This document shows positions 45,001-45,436 of a stretch of DNA of 45,436 nt, one piece after another (the first letter of the stretch is position 1; every line of letters starts with the position of its first letter). The stretch is from a virus (Duplodnaviria > Heunggongvirae > Uroviricota > Caudoviricetes), in the IMG/VR virus record IMGVR_UViG_641736226_000030; one strand, written 5' to 3'. The position numbers are program-made.

Positions 45001-45436
45001 GGTGGTAAACCCAGCTTCCCTGAAGGTATGCTGATACTCGTTGACCCTGAACGGGAAATCGAGGATGGCGATTTTTGCGTGGCCCGAATGAACGGCGATG
45101 AATTTACCTTCAAACGATTCATTCGTGAGAGCGGTAAAGCGTACCTGGAGCCGCTCAACCCACGATTCGACATGATTGAGTGTAACGAAAACTGCCAGTT
45201 TGTCGGAAAGGTCATCAAATCGCAGTGGAATGATGAGACTTTTGATTGAGCTCACAGAGTGATTTGACATCCTTCACGCCTGAAGAATGTGGAGGATGTC
45301 AAAAGCACGTTGGCATCATCATGCCACGTAAAGAGGATTAGTTATGCTTCAAAAGCTAGACGTCGCAGACAGCGTGCGTCGCGAGCTGTCTCCCCGTACC
45401 GCGCGTAAACACAAAGCAGAGTTCGGCCAGTTCATG

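Follow-up and report, generated by a model that had tools for sequence, protein, structure and literature searches.

The window analysed here is a stretch of 45,436 nt from a Caudoviricetes virus (IMG/VR record IMGVR_UViG_641736226_000030), which ends inside a gene that lies downstream of the cI repressor gene and is preceded by a perfect inverted repeat. Our analysis indicated that the cut-off open reading frame (ORF) is the methylase gene of EcoGIII, a Type II restriction-modification (R-M) system of the PstI/BsuBI family, and that the repeat is a copy of a dispersed palindrome and not a part of the R-M system; we consider this joint explanation very likely to be correct. The gene itself is already known, being that of the published EcoGIII system carried by Oslovirus-type Shiga toxin (Stx) 2a phages.

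The cI gene stops at 45249, and an AAGAGGA Shine-Dalgarno (SD) sequence at 45331-45337 precedes an ATG at 45344, from which 31 codons, MLQKLDVADSVRRELSPRTARKHKAEFGQFM, are open up to the window end. Reading of the sequence and a script found the perfect 10 bp repeat, the SD, the start codon and the 31 open codons all as the first-pass annotation had described them. L001 was used as the reference frame for R-M phage DNA running past the window end, and in it the methylase starts at position 8945. In identical records the full ORF encodes 489 aa and is annotated as a methylase (L001 8945-10414), and the next ORF encodes a 317 aa BsuBI/PstI-family Type II endonuclease (L001 10411-11364) that overlaps the methylase gene by ATGA. 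Extended in this way the ORF was found to be long and conserved across records, and is neither a short, unconserved frame nor an ordinary early-left phage gene, the two outcomes that had been named as speaking against a special function.

The methylase (M) has the motifs of a methyltransferase: the 489 aa product contains DAGAGLG (S-adenosylmethionine binding) and NPPY (N6-adenine catalytic), and the GQFM at the window edge starts a conserved GQFMTP stretch, with the methylase core under way by residue 27. It matches the Eco57I methylase domain of Pfam (3e-9). Adjacent to it is a cognate endonuclease (R) of the BsuBI/PstI fold, which matches the Pfam domain BsuBI_PstI_RE (5e-61) and its N-terminal helix-turn-helix (HTH) domain (1e-54), as well as the SdaI endonuclease structure PDB 2ixs (1e-77). 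The full-length PADLOC models MTase_II and REase_II were matched by M and R at 5e-248 and 2e-168, respectively. On the basis of the translation, the Pfam and PADLOC matches and the identical records, the window therefore carries, on the plus strand at 45344-45436, the first 31 codons of an N6-adenine DNA methyltransferase of the M.EcoGIII type.

Genomic comparison found 100% identity between the final 1037 bp of the window and many Stx2a-converting phages and prophages, among them P13374, VT2phi_272, PA2 and Ss-VASD and the O104:H4 prophages of E. coli C227-11 and 2011C-3493. As a query, this 1037 bp sequence matched 98 phage records, 74 of them with at least 99% identity over the query, and 146 of 5426 complete E. 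coli genomes. The locus is the same as that of EcoGIII in the O104:H4 Stx2 prophage, with no difference detectable in the 93 visible nt. PMC6602927 describes M.EcoGIII as a methylase carried by Stx phages and belonging to a Type II system like PstI. As far as the summary of Fang et al. 2012 given in PMC6602927 goes, EcoGIII methylates and cleaves CTGCAG, all CTGCAG sites are methylated in O104:H4 lysogens, the system guards against lambda-like phages, and 1,951 genes are affected by it in their expression; an O111 E. coli that produces Shiga toxin (STEC) and has a 99%-identical enzyme also has CTGCAG 100% methylated (PMC6602927). No avoidance of CTGCAG was observed in the window (11 sites versus 13.5 ± 3.4 expected), consistent with a phage that carries its own methylase. 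In outbreak STEC, EcoGIII influences the methylome, the expression of genes and the resistance to phages; to this the gene itself, as found here, adds nothing new.

The record of phage TL-2011c has one extra A at about position 2590 of L004 (about 45433 in the window), reading GTTCAATG versus GTTCATG at methylase codon 30-31. That record annotates a shorter methylase from a later start, and the endonuclease is intact; the extra A is either a sequencing error or the mark of a frameshifted M beside an intact R.

The gene had been placed in the position that rexAB holds in lambda, and a lysogen-expressed exclusion function had been proposed for it. The position was borne out, as the gene lies between cI and the terminator and OL/pL region. 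The proposed function stood in part: published work describes an R-M system that methylates in lysogens and restricts lambda-like phages, but the visible ORF is its self-protection half and the effector is the next gene. A Rex-like or kinase gene, on the other hand, is not what was found, as domain searches matched only methylase and endonuclease families and detected no homology to RexA or RexB. The system is like lambda rexA-rexB in its position ahead of a terminator, its cI orientation and its being a lysogen-expressed defence against other phages; it is unlike them in having no sequence or domain similarity, and EcoGIII cleaves unmodified DNA and methylates its own instead of acting by abortive infection. 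With the PstI/BsuBI/SdaI family it has in common both BsuBI_PstI_RE domains, the SdaI match and an N6-adenine methylase with NPPY; the difference is that the phage M and R genes are in tandem, overlapping and probably inside a repressor transcription unit, and neither stand alone nor follow a resolvase gene.

The order of elements in the phage is cI, cargo, terminator and pL-like promoter, with the cargo on the cI strand, as for rexAB. Downstream of R is a strong intrinsic terminator, AGCCCGGCC..GCCGGGTTTTT, at L001 11383-11404 followed by a T-run, and then a pL-like promoter site (L001 11507-11535) located in a stretch that varies by immunity type and contains cI-operator-like sequences; further downstream are Rha, an antirepressor, kil, gam, recT and exo. 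The STEC1585 prophage (L007) encodes an identical cI protein and has a 245 aa gene (L007 3607-4344) in place of R-M. Homology between L001 and L007 stops at L001 8909 and restarts at 11385, where the shared terminator begins, and because it resumes there the cargo evidently has no terminator of its own. The 245 aa product had no match in Pfam, NCBIfam or PADLOC, and its gene is a candidate for another lysogen-expressed function. In the E. coli G6/7 prophage (L006) the slot holds a deletion remnant of R.

Two further variants of this region were observed. In L006, about 160 bp of unrelated sequence (3566-3725) lie between the palindrome and the truncated R, making this a deletion/replacement derivative of the R-M slot. 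Phage Lyz12581Vzw, of a sister immunity group, has an antitoxin-like gene with a SocA/Panacea domain and a 126 aa gene as additional cargo between R-M and the pL region (L003 7108-7958).

A consensus scan, which can miss real promoters, found no promoter-like or terminator-like site on the plus strand between cI and M. From this and from the architecture, M and R are probably made from a lengthened cI transcript, in the manner of lambda rexAB. In a lysogen, M and R would be made from the cI transcript, started at pRM and, on establishment, at pRE, by read-through of the intergenic hairpins, and the cI-M-R transcript would end at the terminator common to the slot variants. The M-first order with the ATGA coupling would give modification a head start over restriction.

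The same M-R cassette, with 88% aa identity in M and the same overlap, was found on small IncP and other plasmids of Pseudomonas, Aeromonas, Citrobacter, Morganella and Serratia, where a resolvase gene precedes it, and a more distant copy was found on a Pandoraea plasmid. All plasmid-phage DNA alignments start at L001 8904, which corresponds to 45303/45304 in the window. Therefore, the cassette opens with AAGCACG at 45304, and a second hairpin and the SD belong to it, forming a 5′ leader on the plus strand (45304-45343) whose left limit is the homology edge of the plasmid copies. This hairpin 2 pairs TGGCAT (45311-45316) with ATGCCA (45321-45326) and extends to 45307-45329; it recurs at about 2462-2486 of the IncP plasmid sequence L150 and about 1503-1527 of the Pandoraea plasmid sequence L151. 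The IncP copy has two compensatory changes, T-A to C-G and A-T to G-C, and the Pandoraea copy has a G-C and two U-G pairs in place of the phage pairs, with a different loop. Comparison of these three lineages suggests that hairpin 2 is a leader RNA structure. In the plasmids (L150 2454-2459 and L151) the junction before the leader was found to read CCCTTTAC|AAGCACG, versus GGATGTCAA|AAGCACG in the phage. The TTAC and TCAA at these plasmid and phage junctions are the left-flank and right-end cleavage motifs of IS608, which may be coincidence.

The inverted repeat itself (45263-45303) begins 13 nt past the cI stop codon. Its arms are exact, TTTGACATCC at 45263-45272 and GGATGTCAAA at 45294-45303 with a 21 nt spacer (read directly and checked by script), and both contain TTGACA. 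As RNA, the stem grows to 16 bp (45263-45278 with 45288-45303, including two G-U pairs) around a 9 nt loop, and the 106 nt intergenic stretch folds at -35.7 kcal/mol (z = -3.9 versus shuffles). The repeat sequence is invariant across four aligned phage lineages. Perfect inverted repeats with arms of 10 bp or more and a spacer of 3-30 nt numbered five in the window versus 0.96 ± 1.1 expected from 100 dinucleotide shuffles, and the number expected in a given 94 nt spacer is about 0.002. Of the other four, those at 19698-19728 and 34730-34760 have T-runs and look like intrinsic terminators, one (44690-44720) falls inside the cI coding sequence, and the last is at 31847-31872.

The repeat was found to travel with cI and not with the cargo. 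In L006 and L007 it lies just as far from the cI stop codon as in the window, and their DNA differs from that of the window from the first base past GGATGTCAA; the loop is TCCTTTGGGG in these two versus CCTGAAGAA in the window, with the stem kept. The repeat is thus not to be taken as a control element of the gene, since it stays with cI beside other cargo and is a generic, dispersed palindrome. We place it at the end of the cI module on the combined grounds of its sequence, fold, departure from chance and independence of cargo, together with the copies elsewhere, their covariation and the model match described below.

Short-query searches matched 107 plasmid records, with near-copies of the repeat and its loop at several unrelated loci. 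A search pattern that fixes only 20 bases, ACATCCTCCNNG-N6-14-CNNGGAGGATGT, matched 17 IMG/VR contigs and 110 genome contigs, including those of Streptomyces, Legionella, cyanobacteria, Chlamydiales and haloarchaea; a rough estimate of chance matches to the pattern is 5-15, and a minority of the matches are ordinary A-run/T-run terminators. The flanks TTG...CAA, which the pattern leaves unspecified, are present in 70 of the 127 viral and genome matches. The consensus of the palindrome, which is about 40 nt long, is TTGACATCCTCCCCG-YCCTTYAGGG-CGGGGAGGATGTCAA, with an 18 bp stem and a TTYA loop. Besides the window repeat, copies lie in L008-L015, L016-L142 and L146-L147, in plasmids, phages and genomes of many bacterial and some archaeal phyla.

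Comparison of 54 distinct copies revealed double-sided changes at all six varying stem pairs, five of which were left free by the search patterns and the sixth partly constrained. Compensatory cells numbered 45 versus 9.5 in shuffles, and stem pairing was 97% versus 41-55% with the partners slid. A covariance model for which only copies from other genomes were used matched 45263-45303 over its full length (37.9 bits, E about 2e-8), its sole other match in the window being 1123-1150 (14.5 bits, E = 0.2); the L006 copy was matched at 55.9 bits. On this comparative evidence, the window repeat is to be regarded as a degenerate copy of a widespread palindrome of about 40 nt that forms a real structural family. 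Comparing 1187 flanking ORFs with one another by BLAST and scanning 43 adjacent ORFs with Pfam (79 copies) revealed no recurrent neighbour protein that could act on the palindrome. The genes beside the copies are mutually unrelated, a mix of housekeeping and mobile genes, and many ORFs end within a few nt of the palindrome, some through the TGA of TTGACA. In one metagenome-assembled genome (MAG) of Oxalobacter there are four copies that are virtually identical (33 or 34 of 34 core nt) and whose flanks are unrelated. No Rfam family was found for the palindrome, and a literature search with sequence strings returned only primers, probes and incidental strings.

Most E. coli genomes carry partial matches to the palindrome, several of which were found to be the right end of an element of the insertion sequence (IS) family IS200/IS605, with tnpA and insQ/TnpB, near ydcO, yedK or ytfB. 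The right end of this E. coli element (TnpA WP_192851009.1) reads ...GCAGGGATCCACGTCCTTCAGGGCGTGGAGGATGTCAA; full palindrome copies from elsewhere match its last 31 nt exactly, and the terminal 12 nt of the palindrome, GGAGGATGTCAA, are the right-end terminus of the element. The left end carries CCCCGTCCTTCAGGGCGGGG, with the same hairpin core. These ends are located at 1201-1231 of L143, at 121-151 (right) and about 1443-1462 (left) of L148, and in L149, and the covariance model matches them at model positions 11-32. Elements of the IS200/IS605 family have subterminal hairpins beside the transposon boundaries, and it is at these boundaries that the Y1 transposase cuts and rejoins single-stranded DNA; the right end of IS608 is cleaved after TCAA. 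Given the shared core and terminus, the palindrome has a transposase-type hairpin core and a right-end terminus that is mirrored on its left arm. TTGAC was also considered as a target motif of the E. coli element and was rejected, since the left flank common to its two copies is TTATCC.

The palindrome core, CCACG/CCCCG-TCCTTCAGGG-CGTGG/CGGGG, is the same as in both E. coli IS end hairpins, and the copies are solitary and dispersed as REP or PATE elements are. The palindrome is unlike IS200/IS605 ends and their derivatives (REP/RAYT, PATE) in that it is only about 40 nt long and near-perfect, its left arm mirrors the IS terminus, its copy number per genome is low, its sequence is conserved across phyla and no associated transposase gene was found. 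A group II intron, for which the Rfam D1-D4 models were matched on L015, was found inserted exactly at ...GGAGGATGT|GTGCGCCC in the palindrome (...GGAGGATGT|GTGCG). Intron-bearing palindromes are located at 1150-1500 (minus strand) of L015 and also in L014, L016, L020, L022, L027-L029 and L134, in P1-like phages, plasmids (including an F-type plasmid) and one genome contig. From this exact insertion, the palindrome also appears to be a homing site for that intron lineage.

The reading best supported by these data is that the repeat is an IS-end-like palindrome copy 13 nt past cI, with variable cargo joined at its last base. Four other explanations were weighed against it. A chance palindrome of no significance would not be surprising somewhere in the window, as about one perfect 10 bp inverted repeat is expected per 45 kb, but this repeat lies in a 94 nt spacer, forms 16 pairs, is kept across phage lineages and cargo variants and is matched by the independently built family model, and such an explanation is hardly credible. 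Many Type II systems are controlled via palindromic operators directly upstream of their genes, and the perfect 10 bp arms, each with TTGACA, would suit an operator for a C-protein-like regulator, or for methylase autoregulation, that times restriction after modification. However, neither a C gene nor a small HTH ORF lies in or beside the cassette, and a methylase core already begun by residue 27 (GQFMTP) leaves no DNA-binding N-terminal extension. The repeat is also present in prophages without R-M and absent from the plasmid R-M copies, whose homology begins after it, and the same palindrome stands beside unrelated genes in many phyla. Because it is absent from the plasmid cassettes, present without R-M and accompanied by no controller gene, we conclude that the repeat is not an R-M operator, a role that we hold to be very improbable. 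More weight is due to the possibility that the repeat is the cI terminator or a strong attenuator, with M-R as a separate unit that has its own promoter and is expressed independently of the repressor. The hairpin, which begins 13 nt after the cI stop, is very stable, copies elsewhere are often 0-50 nt from a stop codon, and the group II intron sits exactly in the palindrome; terminator-like stem-loops are the homing sites of class C group II introns. The Pandoraea cassette, in addition, has no annotated upstream gene for about 900 bp. Yet the stem is followed on the plus strand by AAGCACG with no T-run, and the terminator scan, which flagged the true terminator after R, did not flag it; lacking a U-tract, the repeat is not a canonical terminator. 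Moreover, no sigma-70-like site was found in the 40 nt from the repeat to the ATG, and the use by the cargo of a terminator common to all slot variants is an operon-extension layout like that of cI-rexA-rexB. We therefore regard termination or strong attenuation at the repeat as doubtful, though worth keeping in mind.

A further explanation makes the palindrome an active recombination site, at which an IS200/IS605-type Y1 transposase acting in trans cleaves after TCAA and joins R-M and other cargos. The three slot variants diverge at the first base past the repeat and the plasmid-phage R-M homology begins at that same base, the core and terminal nt are shared with IS right ends, and one MAG has four essentially identical copies with unrelated flanks. 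The plasmid junction, TTTAC|AAGCACG, also fits, TTAC being the target motif of IS608. Against this, no transposase or second end is tied to the slot, the right-hand junction is the terminator start and has no matching motif, only three phage variants were compared, and the left flank common to the two E. coli IS copies is TTATCC, not TTGAC. Ordinary illegitimate recombination beside a conserved hairpin would look alike. An active site is thus unlikely, somewhat more so than a terminator. Returning to the IS-end-like palindrome copy, its present role may be that of a passive relic that forms a stable RNA hairpin in the cI-M spacer, and it may serve as a preferred junction for cargo exchange; we hold both suggestions with low confidence. 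The broadest claim would be that these palindromes, for which no published description was found and which extend across bacterial and archaeal phyla, derive from or are recognised like IS200/IS605 ends, that TCAA is a fixed cargo joining point for phages and plasmids, used here by EcoGIII within the repressor operon, and that the palindrome is also a group II intron homing site; taken as a whole this is put forward only tentatively, as an improbable generalisation.

Several observations weigh against the account preferred here. Co-transcription with cI would rest on architecture and on a simple consensus scan, and the 16 bp hairpin right after cI could halt much of the transcription, in which case R-M would need a promoter of its own. 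Upstream of the Pandoraea cassette, the nearest annotated gene is about 900 bp off on the other strand, which suggests that the cassette can drive its own expression. The L007 stem has two mismatches, and selection on the structure in the phage is therefore not strict. Most copies elsewhere are solitary with unrelated neighbours, no tnpA or tnpB was found near the repeat in the window or its extension, and the link of the palindrome to IS200/IS605 is one drawn from sequence. The functional results on EcoGIII are cited second-hand, and the CTGCAG specificity of the window gene would follow from its identity to a published prophage.

To the published EcoGIII we add where it sits in the immunity operon, where the cassette begins and ends, and the two hairpins between cI and M. 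R-M would be a plug-in cassette in the cI transcription unit, with a dispersed palindrome on the left and a shared terminator on the right, an anatomy that explains the varying defence cargo at this slot among otherwise near-identical Stx prophages and under which R-M expression is predicted to follow the lysogenic state. The palindrome family with its fixed cargo junction is the sole part that might be new. If the palindrome is mobile or recombinogenic, it bears on how hairpin elements, Y1 transposases and group II introns take part in cargo exchange of phages and plasmids.

Other identities of the repeat were tried and rejected. A promoter on the TTGACA of the arms has no acceptable -10 at 16-18 nt, and the promoter scan was empty; kinship to the cI operators in OR and OL extends only to a common -35 hexamer. 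An integron attC site was set aside by eye, as the order of core and inverse core and the sequence do not fit. The loop CCUGAAGAA resembles the 5′ half of the lambda nutL boxB, but the 3′ half is absent and the loop occurs in plasmid copies too, and the likeness was judged a coincidence. Reading the UGA of UUGACA through a selenocysteine insertion sequence (SECIS) was dismissed because the adjacent ORFs are unrelated ordinary genes, and a coding remnant in the HILHALKNVEDV frame because no ORF is conserved across the element. Rfam at a permissive threshold gave only sub-threshold matches over the region, namely four microRNA precursor models, a viral pseudoknot, a snoRNA and a fluoride riboswitch, the last inside cI.

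Upstream of the repeat, the cI gene occupies 44536-45249 on the plus strand and encodes a 237 aa repressor with the Pfam domains HTH_3 and Peptidase_S24, called cI or LexA family in the records. Divergent from it on the minus strand is a cro-like repressor gene (44237-44440), taken from the ORF list and called Cro in identical phage and prophage records. The right operator (OR) region between them (44441-44535) is that of the divergent promoters pR and pRM; a promoter-like site, TTGACA-17-AATGAT, was found on its minus strand at L001 8094-8066, equal to 44493-44465 in the window. The OR region is immunity-specific and is replaced in the Lyz12581Vzw group.

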